A stretch of DNA of 64,000 nucleotides from a bacterium (GCA_965216635.1 OZ244188.1:136001-200000); one strand, 5' to 3'; numbered from the stretch's first letter, positions 4,698 through 53,969 are shown. The notes: generated by a model not told the origin, from the sequence alone. Made by a program: numbers and translations.

Positions 4698-4722
4698 CTT
4701 TAGAATTTTATGCCTCTAAGTT

Positions 4723-4824
4723 TACCAGCTAACCTGTTTTTATGCTTCATTGATTTTACCAGCTAACCTATCTTTATGCTTCATTGATTTTGCCAGCTAA
4801 TCTGTTTTTATGCTTCATTGATTT
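4723..4824. repeat. 34-bp tandem direct repeat x3 (TTACCAGCTAACCTGTTTTTATGCTTCATTGATT); the last copy overlaps and encodes the res C-terminus (…LAGKINEA*)
   Basis: Seen directly in sequence; each unit carries the same mini reading frame MKHKNRLAGKINEA* on the minus strand. Confidence 0.7.
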
Positions 4825-7800
4825 TGCCAGCTAATCTATCAAAATCATCCAACCAATATTTTCTATACTCTTCTGGAGCAAGAGTAGTGTCTCTCGTTTT
4901 GAAAAACAACTGAGTTTTTATTGTAAAGCCGTGAGACAAATATTTTTTTGCTTGGTTTTTATTTTCAATTTTTTCTTCAAATAGATTTTTATAGCCATCA
5001 ATTTTTCTTATCACATCGGTATGCTCTGTGCCTTTGGGATCTAAAAAAAGAATGGTATAATTCTTCTCTTTTTGCATCCAAAAAATAAAATCAGGGAAAA
5101 AATGGGATATAGAATTTGTCTTTGGGTTATAGTAAGGAATATGAATACTATCTAAAGTTTCGTCTAGTTTAGAAAACATCCACCAATCATAATTTTTAAA
5201 AACACTGTTATCTTTTTGCAAATATTCTTCTAAATTTTCAATAAACTTTATTTCGCTCGGCACATCAATAATATGGTTTAAGTAATCTACTTTTTCTTGC
5301 TCTGCTACAATTAGAGGATGGTAGTAATGGTTGGCTAAATATTTTATTTTAATTTTTTGATTGTTGAGCTCAAAAGTTTTTGCCGATTCGAATTTTTCAA
5401 ATAAAGTGAGTTGTTCGTCGTAATCTTTTCTTTTTCCCGTTTTGAATAATTCTTCTAATTCTAATTCTTTTGCTGCACTAGATTTATTTAGTTTTTGATT
5501 TTTTATAATTTCCAGTTTCTCTTTTAATTCTTCAATTTTATTTCCATCTTTGAATTTTATTTCTTTAAAATGCACAATTTCTGCTTCTAGTTTTTTAAAC
5601 CCATCAACCTCTTGGTTTTGAATGCTGAAATAATCTAAGATACTTTTGAGGTGTAAATCTGGTTTATCAATATTTCTTGTCTCGTCAAAATTGTAATATT
5701 TGCTTTGATTCTGCATACTTTCTGACACTTTTTTTAAGACTTTTATCTCGCATTCGTTTTTTAGCAAAACGATTTTATCTCCTAAATGTTCAAATAGTTT
5801 TTGAGTTTGGGTAAGGTCTTTTTTACTAACCGAATACTTTAAAACAGTGCTGGATTCTGCCAATATTTTATTGGATTTTTGATAAACAGGTACGAGTAAC
5901 AAACGATTTTTAATTTTTTCGTTTATTGCAAATAAGTCTCCCAAATTATGTTCTGGCTTTTGCTGTTCTTCTTGGAGTTTTTCTATTATATTTTTTAAAT
6001 TTTCTGCGTTGGTTCCAAAAACAAACAGACTTTCTAAGGCTAAAATATTTTGTTTTATTTTATCAAACAGCTCTTGCTCTGCTTCTTCAGCGGCTATTAA
6101 GTTTTGCAATCTTTTTCTTTTATTTTTTAGAGGCTCTATCCGCAACCCACGCCCTACCGATTGCAAAACAAATTTTTTAGAATCTTTTGCCATTCCTATA
6201 TTTACAAATAAAATAAGATTGGGTCTATTAGAATCCCACCCTTCGTAAAAAGAACGCGAGCCCATCAAAATATTTATATCCGAATCGTCTTGGTTGATTT
6301 TTTTGAATATACTTTCATTTTCCAAACTTTCTATGATTTGATAATCTGCCACTGTGTCTTTTAACCAGCCAGAAATATCTCCAATTTTTATCAAAGCAAA
6401 AGGTTTCTCCGAAGTCTGTAGTTTGAAAGCAATCTCTTTTTTATTTTTTGGAACCTTTAAAATTTCAATTTTGCCGAAATTATTTGCATTGAATACAGCT
6501 TGCAGAATTTTCTTGTAGCTTATTTTTGAAAGTATATTGCTATCTATTTCTATTTTTGTATTTTCAAATAGATATTTATTATTGTCCGAAAATTCAGCAA
6601 GCAATTCAGTTTTAGCTTCTTCCAGTAAATTTGGTTTAATTTGGTTGTTAGCTATTTTTTCTAGTTCTGCAAAGAAAAGTTTTAAGTCTGGTTCTTTAAT
6701 AATTTTATCCAAATCAGATTTTTTTGTATTGACGGAATTAACCAGTGTCAAGAGCAAGGGGCGGTGATAAAGACTGCCATTTGTTTTTCTTATTTTTTTA
6801 AAATGCTTGTAGCTATAGGTTTGTAAAAGCAGAGTTTTTAAAACAATTTTTTGTTTTTCTATTTCGGAGAAGTTATCTTGTTCCTTAAAAGCAGTTACTT
6901 TCTGTTTTGAAACATAGATATGCTTGCCGTATCCAGCTCCTATAAATTTGGCGAGATTAAAATCAAAAACGCAGCTAGCGTAGTCTCTAGCATCGGTAAA
7001 AGTAGCAGAGAAATTAAACAAAAAACCGTTCCTTGAAAGAATAGAATAAAAAATCTGCCGTTTGCTTTCTTCTTTGTCTCCTTTGTGGGCTTCGTCTAAA
7101 AGAATATACCATTTCCCAAAGTTATCGTAATTTTTAAAATTCACAATGTTTTGCTTGTGTTCATCAGAAATTAAATCAGAGCGGTAATAAAAAATAGTTA
7201 TCTCTTTTTTGGAATAGGGCAGAGCATTTTCGTGTTTTACGCTCTCGTATTCTTTCAAACTTTTTAAGAGGATCTTGGTCTCAAAATTATCTCTATTAAA
7301 CTCTGCTATATGCTCTTTGAACTGTTGTAAAAGATCTTCTCGGTGCGCCAAAAACAAAATATCGTTTTTAGGAATTTCTCCTTTTCTTATCAGCTCTCCT
7401 AAAAGATGAATAAGTTTTACAATCACAAGCGTTTTACCAGAGCCAGTTGCCATCCAAAAACTCATCCGATTGATAAAAGAAGCGAAAGAGATTTTGTCGC
7501 CTGAAACTGAGTATTCCTCACTGTATTCCAAAAGATATTTAGTCGTTTTGTTTTCTTTGCTTTTCTTTTTGCTGCCTTTTTGATTCAAGGTATAATCAAA
7601 ATTTTCATCGTAGTTATTGTTGCGGTATTTTTGAAAAAAATTATTTTTTCTAGTCTGGTAGTCTTTGTGATTTTCGCTGTAAAACAAGTGCAGTCCTTTC
7701 AGTGAATTTTCTAGTGCTTCTTTTTGAAAATCGTAAAGTCTTTTTTTTTGAGAAAAACTTTTTAAATCAAAATTTTGCCATTCTGCTGGCAAGTTGGCAA

Positions 7801-7849
7801 AAGAAATTTTTTTAACTATTTCCTGTAGATAATGCTCCATTATTCCCAC
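4808..7849 (-). CDS. res: Type III restriction endonuclease, Res subunit (SF2 helicase-nuclease)
   Basis: Walker A ATGSGKT, DEAH-box-like LLDEAHKG, 1013 aa, 10-nt overlap with upstream mod gene. Confidence 0.85.
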   Translation of the reverse strand: MGIMEHYLQEIVKKISFANLPAEWQNFDLKSFSQKKRLYDFQKEALENSLKGLHLFYSENHKDYQTRKNNFFQKYRNNNYDENFDYTLNQKGSKKKSKENKTTKYLLEYSEEYSVSGDKISFASFINRMSFWMATGSGKTLVIVKLIHLLGELIRKGEIPKNDILFLAHREDLLQQFKEHIAEFNRDNFETKILLKSLKEYESVKHENALPYSKKEITIFYYRSDLISDEHKQNIVNFKNYDNFGKWYILLDEAHKGDKEESKRQIFYSILSRNGFLFNFSATFTDARDYASCVFDFNLAKFIGAGYGKHIYVSKQKVTAFKEQDNFSEIEKQKIVLKTLLLQTYSYKHFKKIRKTNGSLYHRPLLLTLVNSVNTKKSDLDKIIKEPDLKLFFAELEKIANNQIKPNLLEEAKTELLAEFSDNNKYLFENTKIEIDSNILSKISYKKILQAVFNANNFGKIEILKVPKNKKEIAFKLQTSEKPFALIKIGDISGWLKDTVADYQIIESLENESIFKKINQDDSDINILMGSRSFYEGWDSNRPNLILFVNIGMAKDSKKFVLQSVGRGLRIEPLKNKRKRLQNLIAAEEAEQELFDKIKQNILALESLFVFGTNAENLKNIIEKLQEEQQKPEHNLGDLFAINEKIKNRLLLVPVYQKSNKILAESSTVLKYSVSKKDLTQTQKLFEHLGDKIVLLKNECEIKVLKKVSESMQNQSKYYNFDETRNIDKPDLHLKSILDYFSIQNQEVDGFKKLEAEIVHFKEIKFKDGNKIEELKEKLEIIKNQKLNKSSAAKELELEELFKTGKRKDYDEQLTLFEKFESAKTFELNNQKIKIKYLANHYYHPLIVAEQEKVDYLNHIIDVPSEIKFIENLEEYLQKDNSVFKNYDWWMFSKLDETLDSIHIPYYNPKTNSISHFFPDFIFWMQKEKNYTILFLDPKGTEHTDVIRKIDGYKNLFEEKIENKNQAKKYLSHGFTIKTQLFFKTRDTTLAPEEYRKYWLDDFDRLAGKINEA

Positions 7850-10308
7850 CAGATTAAAGGTTTAATTTTTTTGTAGTCTAGCTCTTTTGTGTTTTCTTTG
7901 CTTCCGTCTGTAAACAAAACTTCGTCTTCAGTGATCATTTTGATCCATTTGCCGTTTAGGCAAGATAGGGTTTCTGCTATATCAACATTGGGATAAAGTT
8001 TTTTTAAGTCTACAGTCGCTTTGTTTTTTTGGTAGTCAATTTCTAAACATTTTAGCATTTTTTCGTCCTTCATAAAAACATAGTCTTGGTAGGCTTTGTC
8101 ACTCGTTTGGTTAAATAAATTTGCATCGCCGTATTTTGTGTTTTCCAAAGTTTCTTCGTACTGCTCTAGCTCGTAGTACTTGAAAAACCCGCCTCCTTTG
8201 TAGTCTTTGGTATCCTTTGAAATACCGCTTTTATCGTAGGCTAAAACTTCTTTCATTCTCGGTAAAACTACGCTATAAAAATGCTCTCCCATTTCTACAC
8301 CGAGCCATTTTCTGCCGAGTTTATGTGCCACCGCTGTTGTAGTGCCAGAGCCGAGGAAATAGTCAAAAATTAAATCTTTTTCTTTTGAGCCTGTATTGAT
8401 TACTCTGGCTAATAATTTTTCTGAGTTTTCTGTTGTAAAACCCCAAGTTGAAGAATAGCCTACCCAATCAGTCCAATTATCTGTTAATTTTTGTGTTTCG
8501 GTTTCTTCTATTTGTGGTGTTTTATTATCTCCATTACTCCATTTTATTTTATTTTCTTTTTCTAACTCAAATATAAATTTTTGATTCAAAGCCCAATGTC
8601 TACCGTCTGGAGGCAATAACTCTGTATTAAGAATTATACGCGCCCTTGTTGTTGCTTTCCCATTTCTTTTTTCAGACTGGGCTCTTATATTTTTTTTTGA
8701 AAAAAGTTTGATATATTCATCAGGTATAGGAGACCATCTAATACCTGGTAAGTGCATAGCTCTCCATTTTGGATTATCTCTTTTTTTTGTAGCTGTAGAA
8801 AAAACAAATTGATTAGACTTTGAATAGAAAAAAAGAGAATCATGTCCACTATGATATTTATTAATTTGCTCTGTTAACTTTGCCGATTTACTAATAATAA
8901 TTTCATTTTGGTAGTTAAATATTTTATCCAACAAACACCTCACAATCCAGTTTCCGTGATAATCGCAGCGCACAAAAATACTTCCGCTATTATGCAAAAC
9001 TTCTTTGGCAAGTTTTAAGCGGTTTTCAAGGAGTGTAGCCCAGCTAGAATCCTTGTATTTGACTAGATAGTCGTAGTCTGCGTTGTTTTCTAAATTAAAA
9101 GGGGGGTCAATATAAATCGTTTGTATTTTTTCTTTGAATTTAGGCAGGATAGTATTGAGTGCTTGGTAGTTTTCACTTTTTATCAGCCAGCCGTCTAGTT
9201 GCTTATCCAAATCGTCAAATAAGCCTAAAATTTCTAGCTCCAAATCTTTAAAGTGTTTGGTATCTATAGGCAAATGCTTGTGTTTTTTGGTTAAACTATT
9301 GCCGTTTAAATCTGTTTCAAAAATAGTTTCTATCTTAAAATCACTCTCTACAATTCCGAGTTCTTGCCATTCTTGGATCTGCTCTTTTATTCCTCCGTGT
9401 TTGAGTATTTTTTGTAGCAGAATTTTATCTGCGATTCTATCTAGCGTCAAAACATAATTGCTATTTTTGGCAAACTTCGGTTTGTTCCAAATCTTGACTA
9501 GCTCGTTTTCAAACTGAGCGACAAAATCAATGATCTTAAAAGCAATGTTTTTCAGTATTTGTAATTGGTTTATTCTTATCGCAGACCATTCTTTAGCCCC
9601 TTCCCAAAGATATTGATAGCTCCAGAGTTTAAACTGCTCTTCCAAAAAAGCCTTAGCGTTTTTGTTAATGAAAAAATCTACCTCTGCTTGTCTATTGAAA
9701 ATACGAAAAGCTTTTTCTAATTCTTCTTCCTTGATAAAAACTCCTGCTTTTTTTATGGCTCTTAAGATATCTTCTGTTTTTGTTTTTGTACCATTATCGG
9801 AGTGAAGCGCAGCAAAGCAAATTGTTCTATCTTCCTTTACTTCCTTAAACTCAAAAACAAGAGATTTTTTCTCGTTCGCTTTTTTAGGTTTAATATTTTC
9901 TGCGTCAAAATAGAATTTGAAAACATCAAATTCTACGAGCGTGCTTCTAAAAATCCTATCGCTTTTGACATAGTAAAGCATCTGAGTTTTCCAAAACAAA
10001 ACTACATCTTTTTCGTCTGTATAGACCTTTTCATAAATGTTGTTATGAAAGGGAGTAGAGTTAAAATAGATAGAACCGCTTTCGCTAAAATAACGACTAA
10101 AAAAAGAATGGAGTTTGTCAAAAAGCTCCTCTCTAAAATTGGAATGTTCTTTTAGAGCTTTATAAATATCTTGTTTTAGCAAAATTTCTATCTGCTCGTA
10201 ATATTTTGATTTTATTTGCATCAAATTGATAAAACCACCTTTGCCGTCAATTTTTGCACCGATAAATATATCTTGCAGTGCTTGAAAAAATTTTTGTTCT
10301 TTCGTCAT
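7840..10308 (-). CDS. mod: Type III restriction-modification system Mod subunit (N6-adenine DNA methyltransferase)
   Basis: DPPF motif (IYIDPPFN) and downstream SAM-binding region (FDYFLGSGTT); 822 aa; operonic with res. Confidence 0.85.
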   Translation of the reverse strand: MTKEQKFFQALQDIFIGAKIDGKGGFINLMQIKSKYYEQIEILLKQDIYKALKEHSNFREELFDKLHSFFSRYFSESGSIYFNSTPFHNNIYEKVYTDEKDVVLFWKTQMLYYVKSDRIFRSTLVEFDVFKFYFDAENIKPKKANEKKSLVFEFKEVKEDRTICFAALHSDNGTKTKTEDILRAIKKAGVFIKEEELEKAFRIFNRQAEVDFFINKNAKAFLEEQFKLWSYQYLWEGAKEWSAIRINQLQILKNIAFKIIDFVAQFENELVKIWNKPKFAKNSNYVLTLDRIADKILLQKILKHGGIKEQIQEWQELGIVESDFKIETIFETDLNGNSLTKKHKHLPIDTKHFKDLELEILGLFDDLDKQLDGWLIKSENYQALNTILPKFKEKIQTIYIDPPFNLENNADYDYLVKYKDSSWATLLENRLKLAKEVLHNSGSIFVRCDYHGNWIVRCLLDKIFNYQNEIIISKSAKLTEQINKYHSGHDSLFFYSKSNQFVFSTATKKRDNPKWRAMHLPGIRWSPIPDEYIKLFSKKNIRAQSEKRNGKATTRARIILNTELLPPDGRHWALNQKFIFELEKENKIKWSNGDNKTPQIEETETQKLTDNWTDWVGYSSTWGFTTENSEKLLARVINTGSKEKDLIFDYFLGSGTTTAVAHKLGRKWLGVEMGEHFYSVVLPRMKEVLAYDKSGISKDTKDYKGGGFFKYYELEQYEETLENTKYGDANLFNQTSDKAYQDYVFMKDEKMLKCLEIDYQKNKATVDLKKLYPNVDIAETLSCLNGKWIKMITEDEVLFTDGSKENTKELDYKKIKPLIWWE

Positions 10309-10312
10309 AATT

Positions 10313-11812
10313 TTAAAATTCAGTAACTCTAGTTTTCACCTTAGTTTTTCCCTGCTCTGTTGTTTCCAAATAAAATTTATAAAGTAGATTTTGAGATACA
10401 GCACTGCGGTATTCTTTCGTTGCTCTCAAATCGCTAATAGGAGAGTAGTCTTTTTGCAAAGTTTTCATTGTAGCCATTATTGTCTCTTCTTCCCATAGTT
10501 TGCCTAGCAAAGCCTGTTCGGTTTTATAAGCTCTTTTGGGGAAGGCAGACATACCTGAAAAAGCGATGGCTATTTTTTGAATGCTGTTAGCATCATCTAG
10601 TTCAAGTTGGAAAGCTCCGCAAAGTGCAGATATATCATCGTCTATTCTTTTGGATATTTTGTAAATTCTAAAATACTGTTTTTCTGTGGGTTTTGGAATT
10701 TGAATCTGTTCTATAAACTCCCCTTTTTTCAGGGCTGTTTTTCTGTAGTCAAGAAAAAAATCTGTAGCTAGAATCACTCTAGTTTTTGCTGCGTGCCCAG
10801 TAGATACTTGGCAAGCTTGCCTTAAAACAAAACGCGCCCCCCAAACCAATAGAGCTGGTGGAGTGTCGGCTACTGCTGAAGCGTTGGCGAGGTTGCCGCC
10901 AATACTAGCTTGATTTCTAATTTGTGGAGAAGCAAATCTTGTCAACAGCAAGGCAAAGTCGGGGTAATATTTTTCAAAAATAAAAAAAAGTTTAGCAAGT
11001 GGCACAGCAGATCCTAAATGGAGTTCGGTTTTTGTTTCCTTGATAATATTTAATTCTGCCACTCTGTGTAAATCAATAATGGCATAAAATCTCTGATGCC
11101 TCTGGGTGATTGCTAGAGATAAATCCGTTCCTCCACAGCTAAGTTTGGCATCTGGATTTTGTAGTAGAAGGTGAATGAAATTTTTTAAGTTTGTAGGAAG
11201 ATAGTAATTTTTTATAAGAGTATCTCCGCCTAGCGCTGTTTTGGCTGGAGATTCTTTAAGGCTATGCAGTAGTTTTAAAGTTTTTTTCTCCTCGCACGGG
11301 TGGGCATCTGCTGGTGTATCTGCTGGTGTATCTATTGGGGCTTGAAGAGCAGCATCTATAATTGCTCTGTAACCAGTGCAGCGGCAAAGATTCCCAGTCA
11401 AACCTTCCAAGACCTGTTCACGAGTAGGTTTTATGTGGTTTTGAAACAGCGCAAATAAAGACATCACAAAACCAGGTGTGCAAAAACCACATTGGGAGCC
11501 GTGATAATCTACCAAAGCTTGTTGCACAGGGTGTAACCCTTTTTTATCTTTTAAACCCTCTACTGTTATCAACTGATTGCCTTCTAAATTGCCCAGCAAG
11601 GCTATGCAAGAGTTAATCGTCCGATATTTTAGTTTTGTATATTTAGAATCTGGCTCTGCGAGAACTACAGTGCAGGCTCCACAATCACCACTAGCGCAAC
11701 CTTCTTTAGTGCCACAAAAACCCTCTTTTCGTAAATACTCCAAAATCGTTGTATTGGCGTTTTCTTCTTGGATAGTGCGGATTTCATTTTTGTTAAGTAG
11801 GAATTGGAGCAT
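10313..11812 (-). CDS. xdhA: Xanthine dehydrogenase small subunit (2Fe-2S ferredoxin + FAD-binding domains). True start probably MLQFLLNK at 11812; the ORF-track N-terminal extension to 11908 is likely spurious
   Basis: Two [2Fe-2S] cysteine clusters (CGxGxCGAC…, CGFCTPG, CRCTGY) followed by a CO-dehydrogenase flavoprotein-like FAD domain. Confidence 0.85.
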   Translation of the reverse strand: MLQFLLNKNEIRTIQEENANTTILEYLRKEGFCGTKEGCASGDCGACTVVLAEPDSKYTKLKYRTINSCIALLGNLEGNQLITVEGLKDKKGLHPVQQALVDYHGSQCGFCTPGFVMSLFALFQNHIKPTREQVLEGLTGNLCRCTGYRAIIDAALQAPIDTPADTPADAHPCEEKKTLKLLHSLKESPAKTALGGDTLIKNYYLPTNLKNFIHLLLQNPDAKLSCGGTDLSLAITQRHQRFYAIIDLHRVAELNIIKETKTELHLGSAVPLAKLFFIFEKYYPDFALLLTRFASPQIRNQASIGGNLANASAVADTPPALLVWGARFVLRQACQVSTGHAAKTRVILATDFFLDYRKTALKKGEFIEQIQIPKPTEKQYFRIYKISKRIDDDISALCGAFQLELDDANSIQKIAIAFSGMSAFPKRAYKTEQALLGKLWEEETIMATMKTLQKDYSPISDLRATKEYRSAVSQNLLYKFYLETTEQGKTKVKTRVTEF

Positions 11813-11953
11813 AATAAAAAGTATAATTATTGTTTTTATTAAAAACACCCTAATAAACCAAAGCCTACTAATAGTAAAATAGATAATCAAGAAAAAAAAC
11901 GCTGGCAATACCTATTTGATGATTTTAAGAGCTCTTATCCTTTTAATGGATGA

Positions 11954-12040: not shown

Positions 12041-12237
12041 AATTTTTTTTTGCTTTTCGTGAAAACAAAAAAAACACAAAGCTCTCACTAAAAATAAACC
12101 CTTGCATTAAGTTATATTTTGGCTAAACTAGGAAAATGTTAAAAAAAAATAAAGAATTATTTTTTTTTGTTTGCTTTTAATTTTTTTTCAGTTATATTTC
12201 TATTTTTACCTTCTTCTAACCTTTATTAAATATTATT

Positions 12238-13491
12238 ATGCAAGAAGTAACAAAAAGGGCGTTAAATAGCTCTCTTAAAAATTGTGAGACAAAATTAGCT
12301 CAATTTAACCAACGGGCTGGTTTTCAACGGGCGAGTTTTCGTGGAGCGTTATTGCTAGGTGCGGTTTTGTTGAGTTTGCTATTTGTAGGTAATCTGCAAG
12401 CACAGAGCAGCGTTAGCACAAAACAGGGATTTTTCGCGGGTATTGTCTATCTACAAGGATTCGGAGTAGATACCACAAAAACTAGCACAAGCTCTGCTAC
12501 TGGCTATGAAATCACTGGCTATGGAGAGGCAACCACTGGAATAGATTTAACTGGTGGAAATCCTAACTGGCCTACTGCAACAGCAACTGGAATGAGAGCT
12601 TTACTAAAAGCAAACTGTGAAACAGGAATAACGAGGATTACACAAACAGATGGAAATTACTTTTTCCCCGTGAGTACCTTTAGCTCTTTTAATGAGATTA
12701 AGGATGCTACTGTAACATCCCTAGACAGTGTTACTGGAGTTCGATTTAGAAATGGAAAAGACCCAAGTGAAGACTCCCATTGTCGTAGGCATTTTTACGG
12801 TGATCTTTCCTCTGGAAGAACCGCTATTAATTTTTCTGCCTATGAGATAGCGACTCCAGATTCGCTTTCAAAATCCCCTCTCCCCAGCACAGAGAGCGAC
12901 GCACTCAACGGTGTCGGTCTGCAAGTCGGCTGGCGAGGAGAAAAATGGAGAGCCTCCTTGACTCACTTTACTGGCAAGGGTGGAGCTAACGAGCTCGTCA
13001 ATACAGTGGTGATGGCGGAGTATTTTTTTCACGAGGAGTTTTTTGCAGGAGGCGGTCTAGCGAGTATGAAGCTTACCAATGGCTCTACTAGTGCTTCGGC
13101 TACTAGTCCCGTGTTAACGGTAGGCTATAAGGAGAACTTAACTCCCAACCTATTCTTTAATATTAGCTTGACGAAGTATATCTCGGGGGTTTCTCTGAGC
13201 CGTTCTGCTCCAGCTTCTGCTCCGATTCCCACTGGCAGAACTTTTAGCGAAACACAGACTGCACGCGGTGATTCAGCCTTTCTTGGAGGCCTAGTTTATA
13301 TAAATGACAGGGGAAGTGCATTTAAATTCAGTTATGATGTTGGTGCTATTGTAGATAGCAGAATAGAAGTAACCCAAGTCCGCACAAGAGATGTGGAAAT
13401 ACAAGAAGTTGAAATTCCAGCAGCGGAGAAAATTGAAGCTGAAATCAAAGCCCCCGTAGTCGTCAGCATTTCCCTGCTTTGGCGCTTTTAA
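12238..13491 (+). CDS. Paralogous outer-membrane beta-barrel protein, copy 1 (conserved N-terminal MQEVTKRALNSSLKNCETK extension, hydrophobic signal-like segment, C-terminal …VVVSISLLWRF)
   Basis: C-terminal aromatic-X-Phe OMP signature, alternating beta-strand pattern, 5-member paralog family with shared upstream region. Confidence 0.6.
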   Translation: MQEVTKRALNSSLKNCETKLAQFNQRAGFQRASFRGALLLGAVLLSLLFVGNLQAQSSVSTKQGFFAGIVYLQGFGVDTTKTSTSSATGYEITGYGEATTGIDLTGGNPNWPTATATGMRALLKANCETGITRITQTDGNYFFPVSTFSSFNEIKDATVTSLDSVTGVRFRNGKDPSEDSHCRRHFYGDLSSGRTAINFSAYEIATPDSLSKSPLPSTESDALNGVGLQVGWRGEKWRASLTHFTGKGGANELVNTVVMAEYFFHEEFFAGGGLASMKLTNGSTSASATSPVLTVGYKENLTPNLFFNISLTKYISGVSLSRSAPASAPIPTGRTFSETQTARGDSAFLGGLVYINDRGSAFKFSYDVGAIVDSRIEVTQVRTRDVEIQEVEIPAAEKIEAEIKAPVVVSISLLWRF

Positions 13492-13597
13492 CAGAGTTGT
13501 TGAAAAAAATGCAAAATTCTTTTTTTTTGTTTGCTTTTAATTTTTTTTCAGTTATATTTCTAATTTTAATCTCTTCTAACTTTTATTAAATATTATT

Positions 13598-14902
13598 ATG
13601 CAAGAAGTAACAAAAAGAGCGTTAAAAACACCTCTTAAAAATTGTGAGACAAAAGTAGCCCAATTTAATCAACGGGCTGGTTTTCAATGGGCTGGTTTTC
13701 AATGGGCTGGTTTTCAATGGGCTGGCTTCAAATGGAATGGCGTTGTATTGCTAGGTGCGATTTTGTTGAGTTTGCTATTTGTAGGTAATCTGCAAGCACA
13801 GAGCAGCGTTAGCACAAAACAGGGATTTTTCGCGGGTATTGTTTATCTACAAGGATTCGGAGTAGATACCACAAAAACTAGCACAAGCTCTGCTACTGGC
13901 TATGAAATCACTGGCTATTCAAACGACGAAACTAGAATAGACGCAACAGGTGGGAATATTTATTTGAATAAGATAGTACTAACTAGCATCAGAGTTTTAT
14001 TCAAAGAAAACTGTGAAGCAGGAACAACGAGTATTACACAAACAGGTGGAGATGCAAATTCAAATGGAAATTACTATTTTGCCTCGAAGCACTTCAGCTC
14101 TTTTAATGAGATTAAGGATGCTACTGAAACAGCCAAGGGAGGCACTATTGTTGAAACTGGATTTAGAAATGGAACAGTGGCAACTCATGACTCCTATTGT
14201 CGCAGGTACTTTTACGGAGATCTTTCCTCTGGAAGAACCACTATTAGTTTTTCTGCCTATGAGATAGCGACTCCAGATTCGCCTTCAAAACCCCCCGTCA
14301 CCAGCACAGAGAGCGACGCACTCAACGGTGTCGGTCTGCAAGTCGGCTGGCGAGGAGAAAAATGGAGAGCCTCTCTGACTCACTTTACTGGCAAGGGTGG
14401 AGCTAACGAGCTCGTCAATACAGTGGTGATGGCGGAGTATTTTTTTCACGAGGAGTTTTTTGCAGGAGGCGGTCTAGCGAGTATGAAACTTACCAATGGA
14501 TCTACTAGCGCCTCGGCTACTAGTCCCGTGTTAACGGTAGGCTATAAGGAGAACTTAACTCCCAACCTATTCTTTAATATTAGCTTGACGAAGTATATCT
14601 CGGGTATTTCTCTGAGCCGTTCTACTAATCCAGCTCAGATTCCCACTGGCGCCCCTCTTATAAGAAAAACACAGACTAAAGATGGTGATACAGTGTACAT
14701 TGGAGGAATAGTTGAGAGGAATGAAGCACGGTTTCGATATAGCTCCGCATTAGAAAGTGTGTCAGATTCCAGAATAGAAGCAACCCAAGTCCGTAGCCGA
14801 GATGTGGAAATACAACAAGTCACAACTCCAGCAGCGCAGAAGATAGAAGCCGAAATCAAAGCCCCCGTAGTCGTCAGCATTTCCCTGCTGTGGCGCTTTT
14901 AA
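13598..14902 (+). CDS. Paralogous outer-membrane beta-barrel protein, copy 2 (4 copies of GFQWA pentapeptide repeat in N-terminal extension)
   Basis: As copy 1; 15-bp in-frame tandem repeat GCTGGTTTTCAATGG. Confidence 0.6.
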   Translation: MQEVTKRALKTPLKNCETKVAQFNQRAGFQWAGFQWAGFQWAGFKWNGVVLLGAILLSLLFVGNLQAQSSVSTKQGFFAGIVYLQGFGVDTTKTSTSSATGYEITGYSNDETRIDATGGNIYLNKIVLTSIRVLFKENCEAGTTSITQTGGDANSNGNYYFASKHFSSFNEIKDATETAKGGTIVETGFRNGTVATHDSYCRRYFYGDLSSGRTTISFSAYEIATPDSPSKPPVTSTESDALNGVGLQVGWRGEKWRASLTHFTGKGGANELVNTVVMAEYFFHEEFFAGGGLASMKLTNGSTSASATSPVLTVGYKENLTPNLFFNISLTKYISGISLSRSTNPAQIPTGAPLIRKTQTKDGDTVYIGGIVERNEARFRYSSALESVSDSRIEATQVRSRDVEIQQVTTPAAQKIEAEIKAPVVVSISLLWRF

Positions 14903-15009
14903 CAGAATTGTTGAAAAAAATGCAAAATTCTTTTTTTTTATTTTCTTTTTTATTTTTTTTCAGTTATATTTCTATTTTTACCTTCTTCTAACCTTTATTA
15001 AATATTATT

Positions 15010-16353
15010 ATGCAAGAAGTAACAAAAAGGGCGTTAAAAACACCTCTTAAAAATTGTGAGACAAAAGTAGCTCAGGCTGGTTTTCAATGGGCTAACCAAT
15101 GGGCTAATCAACGGGCTGGTTTTCAATGGGCTAATCAACGGGCTGGATTCCAATGGAATGGCGTTGTATTGCTAGGTGCGGTTTTGTTGAGTTTGCTATT
15201 TGTAGGTAATCTGCAAGCACAGAGCCCCAATGGAAACACAAAACAGGGATTTTTCGCGGGTATTGTTTATCTACAAGGATTCGGAGTAGATACCACAAAA
15301 ACTAGCACAAGCTCTGCTACTGGCTATGAAATCACTGGCTATTCAAATGACGAAACTAGAATAGACGCAACCTCTGGATTGTCTTATTGGGATACCCCAG
15401 CGGGGACGACAGCCGGAATTGGAGCTAGAGCTTTAATAGCGGCAAACTGTGAACGTGATGCAACAAATACTACATATCTAGGTGAAAATTATTATCTTCC
15501 AAGAAATTTCTATTTCTTCGATTCTTTTGATCCTGGTGCGAAACAGTCTTTAGCTGATATTAATAGTTCAATGAATGATGCTACTGTTACTTTTAATGAC
15601 GACACTATTTCTAGTAGAATCTTTCGTTCAGGATTGGTAGCTGGAGAAACATCCTATTGTAAAACTTACTTTGATAGCCTTCCCCAAATTAATTTTTCTG
15701 CCTATGATGTAACTCCAGATTCGCCTTCAAAACCCCCCGTCACCAGCACAGAGAGCAACGCACTCAACGGTGTTGGTCTGCAATTCGGCTGGCGAGGAGA
15801 AAAATGGAGAGCCTCCTTGACTCACTTTACTGGCAAAGGTGGAGCTAACGAGCTCGTCAATACAGTGGTGATGGCGGAGTATTTTTTTCACGAGGAGTTT
15901 TTTGTAGGAGGCGGTCTAGCGAGTATGAAGCTTACCAATGGCTCTACTAGCGCCTCGGCTACTAGTCCCGTGATCACGGTAGGCTATAAGGAGAACTTAA
16001 CTCCCAACCTATTCTTTAATATTAGCTTGACAAAGTATATCTCGGGTATTTCTCTGAGCCGTTCTACTAGTCCTACAGCTACTAACAAAACTTTTACCCG
16101 CACACAGACTGAACGCGGTAAAGATAGTCATAAAGCAACGATTGGTAGCAGAATCACAGTTCCTGCTAATCGGCAAAGCGGGGTAGGCGCTATTTTTCAA
16201 CAAGCAGCAGGTCCTGATAATAGAATAGAAGTAACCCAATTCCGCAGCAGAGATGTGGAAATAGAAGAAGTCACAACTCCAGCAACGCAGAAGATAGAAG
16301 CTGAAATCAAAGCCCCCGTAGTCGTCAGCATTTCCCTGCTGTGGCGCTTTTAA
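15010..16353 (+). CDS. Paralogous outer-membrane beta-barrel protein, copy 3 (mixed GFQWA/NQWA/NQRA repeats)
   Basis: As copy 1. Confidence 0.6.
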   Translation: MQEVTKRALKTPLKNCETKVAQAGFQWANQWANQRAGFQWANQRAGFQWNGVVLLGAVLLSLLFVGNLQAQSPNGNTKQGFFAGIVYLQGFGVDTTKTSTSSATGYEITGYSNDETRIDATSGLSYWDTPAGTTAGIGARALIAANCERDATNTTYLGENYYLPRNFYFFDSFDPGAKQSLADINSSMNDATVTFNDDTISSRIFRSGLVAGETSYCKTYFDSLPQINFSAYDVTPDSPSKPPVTSTESNALNGVGLQFGWRGEKWRASLTHFTGKGGANELVNTVVMAEYFFHEEFFVGGGLASMKLTNGSTSASATSPVITVGYKENLTPNLFFNISLTKYISGISLSRSTSPTATNKTFTRTQTERGKDSHKATIGSRITVPANRQSGVGAIFQQAAGPDNRIEVTQFRSRDVEIEEVTTPATQKIEAEIKAPVVVSISLLWRF

Positions 16354-16383
16354 TAGAGTTGTGTAGGCACCGAATCACCTAAA

Positions 16384-16521
16384 CTTTTGAATTTGCATTC
16401 TGTTTAGCCTATGCAGCGTTAAAAAAAAATTTTAACTCTTGAAATATTACATATATTCCTGCGAGCTAAAATTTTTTTTTGCCTTGCCTAGCCGTCACAT
16501 AACGCAAATTCAAAGGTCTAT
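16384..16521. mobile_element. MITE-like element inserted in the loop of the post-OMP3 hairpin (GGCACCGAATCACCTAAAC | element | ACCTAAACTCGGTGCC), with an apparent 8-bp duplication ACCTAAAC
   Basis: The uninterrupted version of the same hairpin exists on the other strand near 57005-57035; element body is >90% identical to the 59556-59699 copy. Confidence 0.65.
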
Positions 16522-16805
16522 TACCTAAACTCGGTGCCATTCAAAAAACCACCTCCCCGCCAAACCGCATCCCCTCCAAAAACACCTAAAAAAACAAAAT
16601 TGCAGGGACATTTTTTTTGCTTTTCGTGAAAACAAAAAAAACACAAAGCTCTCACTAAAAATAAACCCTTGCATTAAGTTATATTTTGGCTAAACTAGGA
16701 AAATTTTAAAAAAAGATAAAAAGTTATGTTTTTTTTGTTTGCTTTTAATTTTTTTTCAGTTATATTTCTATTTTTACCTTCTTCTAACCTTTATTAAATA
16801 TTATT

Positions 16806-18089
16806 ATGCAAGAAGTAACAAAAAGGGCGTTAAATAGCTCTCTTAAAAATTGTGAGACAAAAGTAGCTCAGGCTGGTTTTCAATGGGCTAATCAACGGGC
16901 TGGATTCCAATGGAATGGCGTTGTATTGCTAGGTGCGGTTTTGTTGAGTTTGCTATTTGTAGGTAATCTGAAAGCACAAACCCAAAATGGTTCCAATGGA
17001 AGCACAAAACAGGGATTTTTCGCTGGTATTGTCTATCTACAAGGATTCGGAGTAGATACCACAAAAAGCAGCACAAACTCTGCTACTGGCTATAGAATCA
17101 AATATTCAAACGATATTACTGGAATAGACGCAACAGGTGGGAATCATACGTTGAGCCCTTTACTTTTACTAACTAGCATCAGAGCTTTATTCAAAGAAAA
17201 CTGTGAAGAAGGAACAACGAATTTTACACAAACGGGTGGACAAGCAAATTCAAATGGAAATTACTATTTTACCAGGGATTACTTCGTATCTTTTAATGAG
17301 ATTAAGGATGCTACTGTAATAGAATTTGTAGACCCTATTGCTCGAACTAGATTTAACAATGGAAAAGTGGTAACTCATGACTCCTATTGTCGCAGGTACT
17401 TTTACGGTGATCTTTCCTCCACTAGAACCCCTATTAATCTTCCTGATCCTGATGTGACTGCAGATTCGCTTTCAAAACCCCCCGTCACCAGCACAGAGAG
17501 CGATGCACTCAACGGTATCGGTCTGCAAGTCGGCTGGCGAGGGGAAAAATGGAGAGCCTCTCTGACTCACTTCACTGGCAAAGGTGGAGCTAACGAGCTC
17601 GCCAATACAGTGGTAATGGCGGATTATTTTTTTCACGAGAAATTTTTTGCAGGAGGCGGTCTAGCGAGTATGAAGCTTACCAATGGTTCAACTAGCGCCT
17701 CGGCTACTAGCCCCGTGGTTCAAGTAGGCTATAAGGAAAACTTAACTCCCAACCTATTCTTTAATATTAGCTTGACAAAGTATATCTCGGGTATTTCTCT
17801 GAGCCGTTCTACTAATCCAGCTCCGATTCCCACTGGCGCCCCTCTTATTAGAAAAACACAGACTAAAGATGGTGATACAGTATTCATTGGAGGAACAGTT
17901 ACTAGAATTGACAGGTCGAATCAATATAACTCCTTATTTAGCAGTGTGTTAGATTCCAGAATAGAAGTAACCCAAGTCCGCAGCCGAGATGTGGAAATAC
18001 AACAAGTCACAACTCCAGCAGCGCAGAAGATAGAAGCCGAAATCAAAGCCCCCGTAGTCGTCAGCATTTCCCTGCTTTGGCGCTTTTAA
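16806..18089 (+). CDS. Paralogous outer-membrane beta-barrel protein, copy 4
   Basis: As copy 1; shares about 270-bp upstream region with copy 1. Confidence 0.6.
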   Translation: MQEVTKRALNSSLKNCETKVAQAGFQWANQRAGFQWNGVVLLGAVLLSLLFVGNLKAQTQNGSNGSTKQGFFAGIVYLQGFGVDTTKSSTNSATGYRIKYSNDITGIDATGGNHTLSPLLLLTSIRALFKENCEEGTTNFTQTGGQANSNGNYYFTRDYFVSFNEIKDATVIEFVDPIARTRFNNGKVVTHDSYCRRYFYGDLSSTRTPINLPDPDVTADSLSKPPVTSTESDALNGIGLQVGWRGEKWRASLTHFTGKGGANELANTVVMADYFFHEKFFAGGGLASMKLTNGSTSASATSPVVQVGYKENLTPNLFFNISLTKYISGISLSRSTNPAPIPTGAPLIRKTQTKDGDTVFIGGTVTRIDRSNQYNSLFSSVLDSRIEVTQVRSRDVEIQQVTTPAAQKIEAEIKAPVVVSISLLWRF

Positions 18090-18396
18090 CAGAAAAAAAC
18101 CTACAATGGATGTTGCAAAGCATAACATGTAGAGACGCCCTACACGGGCGTCTTATATGATGTGCATAAACCACAAAAAAAACTATTTTAATAAAAGTTC
18201 TGAATTTATGAGACGCTCGTATAGAGCGTCTCTACAGACCTACATAAAATAAAAAATAACGCCCCGCATTTCCCCAAACATCTTCTTAAGAACGGGGACA
18301 CATTTTTACCCAAAATGGTTGAATAAGCAAAAAATAACGTTCCCGCAAAAACACCTAAAAAACAAAATTGCAGTGGGCATTTTTTTAATTTTGCCC

Positions 18397-18402
18397 TATA
18401 AT
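18397..18402 (+). promoter_or_regulatory. Putative -10 box (TATAAT) of the Bdr-like array promoter, inside the conserved module CAAAATTGCAGNGGNCATTTTTTTAATTTTNCCCTATAATCTTTTTATTTT
   Basis: Module conserved (reverse-complemented) upstream of the two minus-strand Bdr-like transcription units at about 55625-55690 and 56890-56945. Confidence 0.35.
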
Positions 18403-18500
18403 CTTTTTATTTTTTGGGGCTTGACTTCACTAGAATAGTTTGCTAAAATAAAACAACCAAAATAAAATGTTAAGAAAAATAAAATGTTAAGAAAAATAAA

Positions 18501-19022
18501 ATGTTAAGAACAACTACCGCACAAAAATTTACTTCTACTAAAATCTACGATCTTTTGATTGGACTAGGTGCAGAAAAAAAGAGCGCAGAGATTGCTATTG
18601 GAGAGTTTGTAGAACTGGTCCCAAAAGCTTTGGCTTCTAGTACAACAGAAACTGGTTTGGATACCACTCTTCCTACGGACAAAGGGGATATCTGGAGATT
18701 AGAATCCATCATTTCAGACAACAAAAGCGATACAGACATAAAACTGAAAGAAATTGAGAAGGAAATAGTAAAAATCAAAAGCAACCTAAAAGAAACTATA
18801 GCAAAAACCAAAAGCGACCTAAAAGAAACTATAGCAAAAATCGAAAGCAACTTAAAAGAAACTATAGCAAAAAACAAAAGCGATACCGATTTAAAAATAG
18901 AAATGATGAGAACAGAAGCAGAAAAAAACAAAAACGCTCTATTGATTATAGGAATTTCAACACAGCTAGCAGTTGGTGGGCTGGTTGTGGCTGTATTACA
19001 GCTTTTAAAAGTTTTGACTTAA
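18501..19022 (+). CDS. Bdr-like / DUF1640-like small coiled-coil membrane protein (173 aa; C-terminal cassette …LQLLKVLT)
   Basis: Conserved N-domain MLRTTTAQKFTSTKIYDLLIGLGAEKK…, 11-aa (33-bp) tandem repeats KSDLKETIAKx, C-terminal TM helix; architecture parallels Borrelia Bdr proteins. Confidence 0.55.
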   Translation: MLRTTTAQKFTSTKIYDLLIGLGAEKKSAEIAIGEFVELVPKALASSTTETGLDTTLPTDKGDIWRLESIISDNKSDTDIKLKEIEKEIVKIKSNLKETIAKTKSDLKETIAKIESNLKETIAKNKSDTDLKIEMMRTEAEKNKNALLIIGISTQLAVGGLVVAVLQLLKVLT

Positions 19023-19110
19023 TAAAGTAGCAGAAAAGTTTAGCTTATCTGCAAAATGTATTTTGGCGAGGGGATATTTTTTGGGGGCATTGACTTTAAA
19101 AGGAGAATTT

Positions 19111-19180
19111 GCCAAAATAAGTTTGCCAAAATAAGTTTGCCAAAATAAGTTTGCCAAAATAAGTTTGCCAAAATAAGTTT
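19111..19180. repeat. 14-bp tandem repeat GCCAAAATAAGTTT x5 in the promoter region of the second Bdr-like transcription unit (downstream of TTGACT at 19090)
   Basis: Seen directly; the same repeat is present in 2 copies at 20439-20466 upstream of the next unit. Confidence 0.8.
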
Positions 19181-19251
19181 GATTGCTATGATCTTTTTAG
19201 GTAGAATTTATAAAAATAAAACAACCAGCTATAAAAACCTTTAAAAATAAA

Positions 19252-19788
19252 ATGTTAAGAACAACTACAGCACAAAAATTTACTTCTACTAAAATCTACG
19301 ATCTTTTGATTGGACTAGGTGCAGAAAAAAAGAGCGCAGAGATTGCTATTGGAGAGTTTGTAGAACTGGTCCCAAAAGCTTTGGCTTCTAGTACAACAGA
19401 AAATGGTTTGGATGTCACTCTTCCTACGGACAAAGGGGATATCTGGAGATTGGAATCCATCATTTCAGACAACAAGAACGATACAGACAGAATAATAACA
19501 GAGAACAGAAACGACCTAGAAAGAATAATAACAGACAATAAAAATGATACAGACCTAAAACTGAAAGATATTGAGAGTAAAATCGTAAAAACCAAAAGCG
19601 ACTTGATAAGAATAATAACAGACAATAAAAATGATACAGACCTGAAATTTAAGGATATAGATTTAAAAATAGAAAGGATGAGAACAGAAGTAGAAAAAAA
19701 CAAAAACGCTCTATTGATTATAGGAATTTCAACACAGCTAGCAGTTGGTGGGCTGGTTGTGGCTATTTTACAATTTTTACAAAACTAA
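19252..19788 (+). CDS. Bdr-like small coiled-coil membrane protein (178 aa; C-terminal cassette …AILQFLQN)
   Basis: Paralog family as above. Confidence 0.55.
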   Translation: MLRTTTAQKFTSTKIYDLLIGLGAEKKSAEIAIGEFVELVPKALASSTTENGLDVTLPTDKGDIWRLESIISDNKNDTDRIITENRNDLERIITDNKNDTDLKLKDIESKIVKTKSDLIRIITDNKNDTDLKFKDIDLKIERMRTEVEKNKNALLIIGISTQLAVGGLVVAILQFLQN

Positions 19789-19795
19789 AAATAAA

Positions 19796-20350
19796 ATGTT
19801 AAGAACAGCTACGACACAAAAATTTACTTCTACCAAAATCTACGATCTTTTGATTGGACTAGGTGCAGAAAAAAAGAAAGCAGAGATTGCTATTGGAGAG
19901 TTTGTAGAACTGAGACCAAAAGCTTTGGCTTCTAGTACAACAGAAACGGGTTTGGATACCACTCTTCCTACGGACAAAGGGGATATCTGGAGATTGGAAT
20001 CTATCATTTCAGAGAACAAGAACGATACAGATATAAAACTGAAAGATATTGAGAGTAAAATCGTAGAAACCAAAAGCGACCTAGAAAAAACTATAGCAAA
20101 AACCAAAAGCGACCTAGAAAAAACTATAGCAAAAATCGAAAGCAACCTAAAAGAAACTATAGCAAAAATCGAAAGCAACTTAAAAGAAACTATAGCAAAA
20201 AATAAAAGCGATACCGATTTAAAAATAGAAATGATGAGAACAGAAGTAGAAAAAAACAAAAACGCTTTATTGATTATAGGAATTTCAACACAGCTAGCAG
20301 TTGGTGGGCTGGTTGTGGCTGCATTACAGCTTTTAAAAGTTTTGACTTAA
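19796..20350 (+). CDS. Bdr-like small coiled-coil membrane protein (184 aa from MLRTATTQ; ORF-track start 19745 is an extension into the upstream gene). Separated by only 7 bp from the upstream paralog
   Basis: Paralog family as above. Confidence 0.55.
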   Translation: MLRTATTQKFTSTKIYDLLIGLGAEKKKAEIAIGEFVELRPKALASSTTETGLDTTLPTDKGDIWRLESIISENKNDTDIKLKDIESKIVETKSDLEKTIAKTKSDLEKTIAKIESNLKETIAKIESNLKETIAKNKSDTDLKIEMMRTEVEKNKNALLIIGISTQLAVGGLVVAALQLLKVLT

Positions 20351-20438
20351 TAAAGTAGCAGAAAAGTTTAGCTTATCTGCAAAATGTATTTTGGTGAGGG
20401 GATATTTTTTTGGGGCATTGACTTTAAAAGGAGAATTT

Positions 20439-20466
20439 GCCAAAATAAGTTTGCCAAAATAAGTTT
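20439..20466. repeat. 14-bp tandem repeat GCCAAAATAAGTTT x2 (same promoter context as 19111-19180)
   Basis: Seen directly. Confidence 0.8.
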
Positions 20467-20536
20467 GATTGCTATGATGTTTTTAGTAGAATTTATAAAA
20501 ATAAAACAACCAAAATAAAAACTTTTAAAAAATAAA

Positions 20537-21106
20537 ATGTTAAGAACAACTACAGCACAAAACTTTACTTCTACTAAAATCTACGATCTTTTGATTGGAC
20601 TAGGTGCAGAAAAAAAGAAAGCAGAGATTGCTATTGGAGAGTTTGTAGAACTGAGACCAAAAGCTTTGGCTTCTAGTACAACAGAAACTGGTTTGGATGT
20701 CACTCTTCCTACGGACAAAGGGGATATCTGGAGATTGGAATCTATCATTTCAGAGAACAAGAACGATACAGATATAAAACTGAAAGATATTGAGAGTAAA
20801 ATCGTAGAAACCAAAAGTAACCTAGAAAAAATAATAACAGAAAACAGAAACGACCTAGAAAAAATAATAACAAAAAACAGAAACGACCTAGAAAAAATAA
20901 TAACAGACAACAGAAACGACCTAGAAAGAATAATAACAGACAATAAAAATGATACAGACCTGAAATTTAAGGATATAGATTTAAAAATAGAAAGGATGAG
21001 AACAGAAGTAGAAAAAAACAAAAACGCTCTGTTATTCTGGGGTGTGACAGCCCAGCTGACTATTGGTGGGTTGGTTGTGACTATACTACAATTTTTACAA
21101 AACTAA
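20537..21106 (+). CDS. Bdr-like small coiled-coil membrane protein (189 aa; C-terminal cassette …LLFWGVTAQLTIGGLVVTILQFLQN)
   Basis: Paralog family as above. Confidence 0.55.
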   Translation: MLRTTTAQNFTSTKIYDLLIGLGAEKKKAEIAIGEFVELRPKALASSTTETGLDVTLPTDKGDIWRLESIISENKNDTDIKLKDIESKIVETKSNLEKIITENRNDLEKIITKNRNDLEKIITDNRNDLERIITDNKNDTDLKFKDIDLKIERMRTEVEKNKNALLFWGVTAQLTIGGLVVTILQFLQN

Positions 21107-21113
21107 AAATAAA

Positions 21114-21617
21114 ATGTTAAGAACAACTACAGCACAAAACTTTACTTCTACTAAAATCTACGATCTTTTGATTGGACTAGGTGCGGAAAAAAAGAAAGCA
21201 GAGATTGCTATTGGAGAGTTTGTAGAACTGAGACCAAAAGCTTTGGCTTCTAGTGCAGCAAAAACGGGTTTGGATACCACTCTTCCTACGGACAAAGGGG
21301 ATATCTGGAGATTGGAATCTATCATTTCAGAGAACAAGAACGATACAGATATAAAACTGAAAGATATTGAGAGTAAAATCGTAGAAACCAAAAGTAACCT
21401 AGAAAGAATAATAACAGACAACAGAAACGATCTAGAAAGAATAATAACAGACAATAAAAATGATACAGACCTGAAATTTAAGGATATAGATTTAAAAATA
21501 GAAAGGATGAGAACAGAAGTAGAAAAAAACAAAAACGCTCTATTGATTATAGGAATTTCAACACAGCTAGCAGTTGGTGGGCTGGTTGTGACTATACTAC
21601 AATTTTTACAAAACTAG
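21114..21617 (+). CDS. Bdr-like small coiled-coil membrane protein (167 aa)
   Basis: Paralog family as above. Confidence 0.55.
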   Translation: MLRTTTAQNFTSTKIYDLLIGLGAEKKKAEIAIGEFVELRPKALASSAAKTGLDTTLPTDKGDIWRLESIISENKNDTDIKLKDIESKIVETKSNLERIITDNRNDLERIITDNKNDTDLKFKDIDLKIERMRTEVEKNKNALLIIGISTQLAVGGLVVTILQFLQN

Positions 21618-53451: not shown

Positions 53452-53458
53452 TTTATTT

Positions 53459-53962: not shown

Positions 53963-53969
53963 TTTATTT

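Follow-up and report, generated by a model that had tools for sequence, protein, structure and literature searches.

In-frame tandem repeats within the long putative signal peptides of a variable outer-membrane barrel family

A stretch of 64,000 nucleotides of bacterial DNA (GCA_965216635.1 OZ244188.1:136001-200000; the window, numbered from its first letter) carries four tandem paralogous genes and a fifth on the other strand, and in each of them a run of short tandem repeats stands between the start codon and a hydrophobic, signal-like core. This locus raises the question of what a tandem repeat is doing ahead of a signal sequence: whether it is translated, on what kind of protein it sits, and whether the number of its units matters. 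We hold it highly probable that the repeats are translated and help to build an extended signal peptide on a variable family of beta-barrel proteins. What the repeats do there is a separate matter, on which we are less confident.

We found all five outer membrane protein (OMP)-type open reading frames (ORFs) where the original prediction had placed them, encoding paralogs of 417-447 amino acids (aa). They are g1 (12238-13491, + strand, 417 aa), g2 (13598-14902, +, 434 aa; also P0001), g3 (15010-16353, +, 447 aa), g4 (16806-18089, +, 427 aa) and, in inverted orientation, g5 (57088-58344, -, 418 aa); g2 to g5 are 68-76% identical to g1. All five share the C-terminus APVVVSISLLWRF (...VVVSISLLWRF), an aromatic beta-signal of the kind also present in their relatives (...ISLHLSF, ...VYSF and ...IWRFR). 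They likewise share their start, MQEVTKR(A/T)L(N/K)(S/T)(S/P)LKNCETK(L/V)AQ, which had been predicted as a conserved segment of 20 aa and is conserved over 22. Behind it come the repeats and then (V/A)(V/L)LLGA(V/I)LLSLLFVGNL(Q/K)AQ, which contains no methionine in any of the five copies, just as had been noticed.

Tandem Repeats Finder placed a 15-bp array at 12310-12340 in g1, a 15-bp array at 13669-13725 in g2 (3.8 copies, 97% matches, score 107) and a 27-bp (15+12) array at 15096-15156 in g3 (score 108). Dissected by codon, the unit core is CAA (T/C)GG GCT; with GGT TTT before it the unit has 15 bp and encodes GFQ[W/R]A, and with AA(T/C) before it the unit has 12 bp and encodes NQ[W/R]A. 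The repeat zone of g1 (12298-12345, +, codons 21-36) reads NQRA, GFQRA, SFRG; that of g2 (13658-13741, +, codons 21-48) reads NQRA, three GFQWA units encoded by perfect 15-bp copies, and GFKWN; and that of g3 (15070-15162, +, codons 21-51), a mix of 15- and 12-bp units, reads GFQWA, NQWA, NQRA, GFQWA, NQRA, GFQWN. The zones of g4 (16866-16919, +) and g5 (58228-58284, -) read GFQWA, NQRA, GFQWN and GFQRA, SFQRA, SFQWN. The terminal unit is always written in diverged codons (GGA TTC CAA TGG AAT). All unit lengths are multiples of three, both the 12 and 15 bp seen here and the 18, 24 and 30 bp seen in relatives. Hence, the repeats are real, in frame and variable in number, as the original prediction had it, but they have four or five residues and are not uniformly pentapeptides, and the count from g1 to g5 is 3, 5, 6, 3 and 3 (1-9 genome-wide) instead of 1 to about 5.

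The five genes belong to a much larger family. Among 5.8 billion proteins searched there were 108 matches, 47 of them on one contig of 2,394,643 bp that is evidently the source chromosome; with g5, which is not listed among the 47, there are at least 48 copies, or ~2.6% of the 2.39-Mb genome. The remaining matches lie on ENA metagenome contigs, and none of the 108 has a name or a Pfam domain. An exhaustive HMMER search with the family profile among 1.84 billion cluster representatives gave only 145 clusters at E <= 1e-3, hence the family is narrow and lineage-specific. No match was obtained from PDB sequences by profile search, from JGI metagenomes or the genome collection by scans with the family alignment, or from plasmids by tblastn, and a protein search with the leader only gave no scored matches. 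The relatives come from a related organism in one metagenome assembly, ERZ26869290, in which one contig shows synteny with the window over the genes for IDH, Sat/CysC, PPIase, a 440-aa outer-membrane-like protein and L21.

The original prediction had offered either a translated, extended signal region or a non-AUG start downstream of the repeats. We found that the annotated ATG is the first start past an in-frame TAA at -21 in 5/5 genes, and that, ahead of the mature part, the frame offers no further start except TTG codons within the hydrophobic core. Frame 0 is free of stops, whereas frames +1 and +2 of the five genes contain 4-8 stops in the first 70 codons, and the ATG context is A/T-rich like that of other window genes. 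These four features together make translation of the extension much likelier, and the annotated ATG is almost certainly the true start. In the syntenic relative, an invariant TTGACA-N17-TACAAT stands ~75 nt upstream of the conserved ATG.

If the start were mis-annotated, translation would begin at a TTG within the core, and the 22 codons and the repeats would form a 5' untranslated region acting on spacing or on the mRNA. In-frame TTG codons are indeed present, and some metagenome copies are called from such starts, but these internally started copies carry homopolymer frameshifts that are probably assembly errors. A TTG start would leave a signal of 13-17 residues without a charged n-region, and the surrounding sequence is richer in G/C, as it is at no start of the window. 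It also fits poorly with a frame that stays open for 37-52 codons in the five genes, with unit lengths confined to multiples of three, and with a leader that is open in all 47 same-genome copies and across three clades whose units are unrelated in sequence. We therefore consider a TTG start highly improbable, and the downstream half of the original choice disfavoured.

Shine-Dalgarno sequences were absent at 26/26 gene starts inspected in the window, where the 15 nt upstream are A/T-rich. We found no RNA structure in the 5' region or in the repeats relative to shuffled controls (z -0.2 to +1.6), and the initiation region showed no excess of structure over shuffled sequence (z +0.1 to +1.6). 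A Bacteroidota-type promoter together with a Q-rule, which the missing Shine-Dalgarno sequences and the Q at +1 had suggested, was rejected; other signal peptides of the window lack Q(+1), and the relative has a canonical sigma-70 promoter.

Read from the annotated ATG, the leaders are signal-like and long: 55 aa in g1, 67 in g2, 70 in g3, 57 in g4 and 58 in g5, and 44-83 aa genome-wide. The n-region carries 5-7 K+R vs 2 D+E, and the hydrophobic core has 15 residues with a Kyte-Doolittle maximum of 2.9 over 11 residues. In g2 the core and c-region (13742-13798, +) read VVLLGAILLSLLFVGNLQA, with predicted cleavage at A↓Q; the equivalents are 12346-12402 in g1, 15163-15219 in g3 and 16920-16976 in g4 (all +), and 58171-58227 in g5 (-). 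L(-3), A(-1) and Q(+1), which are L65, A67 and Q68 of g2, are invariant in an alignment of 71 family members and hence fit a signal peptidase I site, L-x-A↓Q. A lipoprotein or Tat signal was considered and rejected; the c-region GNL(Q/K)A↓Q has no Cys, and the window leaders have no RR. We conclude that the whole 55-70 aa N-terminus is, by all these sequence features, most probably one long cleavable Sec signal peptide, and the original prediction of in-frame repeats within a very long n-region was supported.

The array is found throughout the family, in very different spellings. In the same genome, clade A (13 close and 4 distant copies) has 1-9 GFQWA/NQRA-type units, and clade B (30 copies) begins MKN(I/T)NSQVLRKTFA and continues with 2-6 (A/V)RF(T/V/I)L units that run into the core. 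The relative's copies begin MKNITTIE... and continue with KTAIE/KTAMQ/AKIT units, encoded by a 15-bp unit, CCATACAAAAAACAG (5.6 copies), and a 12-bp unit (2.4 copies). More distant members have AGSVMGRF x4, GFLAL x3, ENTTTEQKSI x3 or MKTINNPNPI x2 at the same position, and the most distant members have ordinary signal peptides of ~20 aa. Members P0105-P0108, whose mature part is only 24-32% identical, keep the clade A (GFQWA) leader; hence, the leader is the best-conserved module between subfamilies.

Among close copies the array is what differs. In ten clusters of relatives (>=90% identity), mature parts that are 95-100% identical are preceded by 2-7 different n-regions per cluster. P0342 and P0345, for example, agree at each of 393 mature residues, whereas their n-regions measure 33 and 35 aa and are 72% identical; in P0336 and P0338 the n-region spans 27 and 39 aa, respectively. 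When five such loci of the relative were aligned as DNA, the differences fell in the array, most clearly as a 15-nt in-frame indel with conserved flanks. These comparisons strongly support gain and loss of units in frame. Because the internal units are perfect and the edge unit is diverged, we infer that units change by slipped-strand mispairing or unequal recombination.

Phase variation by homopolymer frameshift in the A/T runs of the relative was tried as a candidate and rejected: frameshifted copies exist, but the assembly is error-prone. Many ORFs of ERZ26869290 (L082, L084 and L085) are frameshifted in homopolymer runs of leader A- and T-tracts, and contig L082 holds repeated inverted copies of the same three genes.

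We asked what kind of protein follows the leader. No Pfam or NCBIfam model scored above threshold for the family. Matches to OMP_b-brl (PF13505) were weak and confined to 7/71 members (best E 0.0021), OmpA_membrane (PF01389) reached E 0.08 in one member, and TIGR04565 gave 15.9 bits vs a cut-off of 60. AlphaFold2, run on g2 with the 71-sequence alignment, returned a model of mean pLDDT 77.5 in which residues 1-46 score below 50 and are disordered, residues 47-62, which make up the hydrophobic core, form a helix and the remainder is beta-rich. About 120-150 of the ~365 mature residues align with an OmpA-type barrel, the remainder being two hypervariable segments, HV1 and HV2. The model thus suggests that the conserved blocks form a small OmpA-type antiparallel membrane beta-barrel, and the barrel that the original prediction had expected is borne out to that extent. 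Identification of the leader units with pentapeptide-repeat proteins (PF00805) was rejected: there is no Pfam match, the units number no more than 1-9, and the model shows their region as disordered (pLDDT <50).

The hypervariable segments were equally distinct at the DNA level. In the alignment of the five window copies, nucleotide identity exceeds 90% from ~-80 to +55, +160 to +330, +745 to +1080 and +1270 to +1390, reaching 100% within the conserved blocks, which are homogenised between copies, and falls to 35-60% in HV1 (~+340 to +740) and HV2 (~+1090 to +1260); it is also low in the repeat zone, owing to indels. HV1 of g2 (13913-14302, +, aa 106-235) is a non-barrel insert with one helix and two cysteines, C139 and C201, invariant in 71/71 sequences; its equivalents are 12517-12885 in g1, 15337-15744 in g3 and 17103-17489 in g4 (all +), and 57697-58056 in g5 (-). 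HV2 of g2 lies at 14624-14764 (+, aa 343-389), with equivalents at 13207-13353 in g1, 16066-16215 in g3, 17811-17951 in g4 (all +) and 57226-57375 in g5 (-). The strand list of the model points to eight strands, which would put HV1 into loop 1 and HV2 into loop 4. The middle and C-proximal variability that had been reported therefore holds, both segments lying outside the conserved barrel blocks.

The hypervariable segments are shared in varying combinations. Both the GG(D/Q)ANSNGNYYF segment and the NPA(Q/P)IPTGAPLIRKTQTKDGDTV segment are common to g2 and g4, and g1 and g5 have APIPTGRTFSETQ in common. Hence, the segments appear to be exchanged by intragenomic recombination, and the variation proposed for this family proved to be mosaic and gene-conversion-like. 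It is plausible that the family is antigenically variable.

Such mosaicism invites another role for the array, that of a recombination hinge: the repeats and the 5' block would supply homology for swapping promoter/leader modules between paralogs and so change which variable cassette follows an active promoter, by the logic of Campylobacter fetus sap or mycoplasma vsa. Identical mature parts do occur with different N-terminal modules (e.g. MYKISK... vs MKNITTIE...), the 5' parts of g1-g5 are mosaic (g3 combines the upstream variant of g1/g4 with the coding variant, KTP, of g2/g5), and the paralog clusters lie in inverted orientation. However, each examined copy has its own upstream block and start codon, which leaves no sign of silent cassettes lacking a promoter; the window has no recombinase or invertase close by; and the contigs that show module swaps come from the error-prone assembly. 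A hinge is thus improbable as the role of the array.

The upstream DNA is duplicated with each gene, in g2 as a conserved block at 13492-13597 (+). Of the ~100-270 bp that had been claimed to be duplicated, the stretch from ~-80 to the ATG is more than 90% identical in the five copies; identity declines by ~-140 overall, and g1 and g4 have ~200 nt of upstream DNA in common. 

Each upstream block also contains T8-T9 homopolymer runs (12150-12190, 13520-13550, 14930-14960 and 16725-16760), the first of which is T9 in g1 and g2, T8 in g4 and rearranged in g3; these runs may be sites of transcriptional phase variation. Between g3 and g4, the long spacer (16354-16805) contains a second copy of the ~200-nt region upstream of g1 and a C-rich 16-bp repeat, AAACCACATCCCCGCC (2.2 copies, 16546-16580), the rest of the window being AT-rich (G+C 30-43% in 2-kb steps, mostly ~33%).

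What remains is whether the number of units matters. The best combined explanation in our view, which we favour by a slight lean, joins the repeat-built signal peptide to a tuning of export or expression by the array; the tuning function taken by itself is tentative. In this explanation, a lineage-specific and massively expanded family of at least 48 small outer-membrane beta-barrels of the OmpA/OprF/NspA/OmpW type would alternate conserved strands with two mosaic inserts, a ~130-aa Cys-bridged HV1 and a ~50-aa HV2. Each protein would run from the annotated ATG through a basic stretch, an in-frame minisatellite and the 15-residue core to the L-x-A↓Q site. Array length would shift by mispairing or unequal recombination between units and, since the changes are always multiples of three, the gene would never be switched off. 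The length and charge of the n-region, and also the first 20-50 codons of the mRNA, would tune translation or export in a graded and heritable way. The step so tuned may be targeting by Sec or the signal recognition particle (SRP), or the early coding region may govern initiation without Shine-Dalgarno pairing. The array would then be a rheostat counterpart to the on/off leader repeats of Neisseria Opa.

A stronger version makes the leader minisatellite a selected contingency locus, giving graded, heritable control of translation or Sec export to ~50 paralogs and kept since before the subfamilies diverged. We regard this version as doubtful.

The main rival to tuning is that the array is a tolerated minisatellite, in which an unconstrained n-region lets an ancestral 15-bp duplication persist, with turnover through slippage and gene conversion, and copy number has no phenotype. 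This is possible, if on the unlikely side. The units are wholly different in sequence between clades, the leader lacks both RNA structure and a signal of purifying selection, and a leader removed before the outer membrane would be beyond immune or phage selection. Against neutrality, arrays occupy the same position in well over 100 genes of at least two species, in subfamilies whose mature parts are 24-32% identical. Neutral arrays should often be deleted, but a short leader occurs in none of the copies of the window or the same genome. The array is also restricted to this family, whereas other secreted proteins of the window have ordinary signal peptides of 20-25 aa (the outer-membrane-like protein at 42576, the PPIase at 44095 and the lipoprotein at 41158).

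Several points weigh against the combined explanation. The units are chemically unlike between clades (aromatic/Gly/Gln, Arg-hydrophobic and Lys/Thr), which speaks against specific binding as their function and suits a tolerated array. By inspection, the first 22 codons differ between the copies compared by ~3 synonymous vs ~5 non-synonymous changes, hence there is no strong sign of purifying selection. HV1 and HV2 are putative surface loops, which may face the outside or the periplasm. A promoter and terminator scan of the window gave promoter-like matches no more often than chance, and the candidate upstream of g2 (TTAACA-18-CAAAAT, 13488-13517) was no better than chance; we therefore restrict the claim to the conserved upstream block of the barrel genes, which is presumed to hold a putative promoter. 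Finally, all relatives come from ERZ26869290, which has frameshifted ORFs and a palindromic contig. Hence, population-level conclusions rest on paralogs and variants within one error-prone sample.

Tuning or not, the anatomy is unusual. A secreted protein is normally least conserved in its signal peptide, and the repeats known from leader-coding DNA are on/off switches that work by frameshift (Opa, Hop). In this family, an in-frame n-region array is retained throughout, across clades with wholly diverged units, and genes that are otherwise identical vary most in that array. Should copy number influence output, the array would provide graded phase variation, acting via export or via translation of the early coding region, in an organism without Shine-Dalgarno use, and the family would offer a natural experiment on what the length and charge of the n-region do in Sec targeting. 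Were the array neutral, this would still be a very large repertoire of variable surface proteins, so far undescribed, in a poorly known lineage.

A second expanded family adjoins the barrel genes, with five tandem genes at 18501-21617 (+) and seven at 52873-56803 (-) encoding proteins of 166-201 aa. These have a conserved N-terminal domain, MLRTTTAQKFTSTKIYDLLIGLGAEKK..., coiled-coil repeats of 33 bp (11 aa) in variable number, and a transmembrane anchor at the C-terminus; their only Pfam match is a weak one, CCDC90-like/DUF1640 (E 3.4e-4). In the metagenome relative, too, a coiled-coil homolog, 55% identical to that of the window, lies directly after a barrel gene; hence, the two families may form a conserved module.

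Two repeats stand out among the coiled-coil genes. A perfect 17-bp tandem repeat, AAAATAAAATGTTAAGA (3.1 copies, 18459-18510), includes the start codon of the first gene. The repeat triplicates this ATG together with its upstream context, and because its period is not divisible by three, the last ATG alone is in frame; it could act as a start-site or upstream ORF (uORF) switch. Perfect 14-bp tandem repeats, TTTGCCAAAATAAG, lie between coiled-coil genes at 19108-19181 (5.3 copies) and 20436-20467 (2.3 copies).

The barrel and coiled-coil clusters occur twice in the window in inverted orientation, at 12238-21617 and 52873-58344, with arms 88-96% identical, and flank ~31 kb of housekeeping genes. 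Homologous recombination between the two would invert the intervening segment. Amid these housekeeping genes lies a GmrSD-type restriction endonuclease (DUF262/DUF1524; 36633-38285, -). The same interval encodes, at 42576-43880 (+), an unrelated 434-aa protein with an ordinary 24-aa signal peptide, a C-terminus ...GIKISF and no Pfam match; this is probably an outer-membrane protein, with a syntenic counterpart of 440 aa in the relative (L083).

Elsewhere in the window, the xanthine dehydrogenase genes are split by an insertion (2415-11908, -): between the xdhB-like gene (2415-4697) and that for the Fe-S/FAD subunit (10313-11908) stand a ResIII/SNF2-type helicase gene (4808-7849) and an 822-aa ORF (7840-10308). 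Positions 4721-4834 carry a 34-bp tandem repeat (3.4 copies), and an in-frame 69-bp tandem repeat (60992-61140, 2.2 copies, 98% matches) lies within an MlaD-domain gene (60496-61842). The IDH of the window is at most 71% identical to proteins of mixed phyla, and PheT is ~30% identical to any chromosome-like record of PLSDB. Judged by these identities, the source organism probably belongs to a poorly sampled lineage.

Among known systems, Neisseria Opa is the closest analogue. Opa proteins are eight-stranded barrels with hypervariable regions in their surface loops, encoded by many paralogs per genome that diversify mainly by intragenomic recombination (PMC3960869). They also have tandem coding repeats in the leader-peptide region, the number of which is altered by slipped-strand mispairing (PMC3960869). 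The window family resembles them as a multicopy family with hypervariable segments between conserved barrel blocks and with leader-coding tandem repeats. The repeats differ in kind: the CTCTT pentanucleotide of Opa shifts the frame and switches the gene on or off, whereas the 12/15-bp units described here never shift it. The window proteins are also larger (~360 aa mature) and carry a ~130-aa Cys-containing insert, and none of the 71 members matched Opacity (PF02462) at E <= 1. The opa loci number up to about a dozen per neisserial genome, compared with ~48 copies in the genome of the window family.

The original prediction had likened the leaders to autotransporters' extended signal peptide region, or ESPR. 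This is a motif of 25 residues, conserved in type V secretion proteins, and has been proposed to slow inner-membrane translocation (PMC8151025). As in ESPR proteins, the signal peptide exceeds ~50 aa and joins an N-terminal extension to a canonical C-terminal signal sequence, and slowed translocation is a possible functional analogue for the window leaders. In contrast, the extension here is built of repeats, hypervariable instead of conserved, and carried by a small barrel without a type V passenger, whereas ESPR is confined to type V secretion proteins with large passengers. ESPR (PF13018) had no match in the window proteins or the 71 family members, and we found no autotransporter or two-partner secretion (TPS) domains in the family, whose ~360 mature residues make a small barrel with inserts. 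Hence, a relationship to ESPR did not hold up.

Other comparisons place single features of the family. With small barrels of the OmpA/OprF-N/OmpW/OmpX type it has a fold class in common, yet it stays below the threshold of every curated profile and differs from them in its large variable inserts, massive paralogy and unusual leader. Helicobacter pylori Hop/Hor proteins form a large OMP family with CT dinucleotide repeats in the signal-peptide coding region; those repeats are frameshifting on/off switches, and the barrel is of another type than that of the window family. Anaplasma Msp2/P44 has dozens of paralogs in which conserved flanks surround a hypervariable core that varies by gene conversion. 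Systems of that type have one expression site, truncated donor pseudogenes and no leader repeats, whereas every copy of the window family that we saw is full-length with its own upstream block. In the literature, we found no account of in-frame repeats in the signal-peptide n-regions of an outer-membrane protein family. The family thus brings together three known themes: variation within an outer-membrane protein family, repeats in the leader region and an extended signal peptide.

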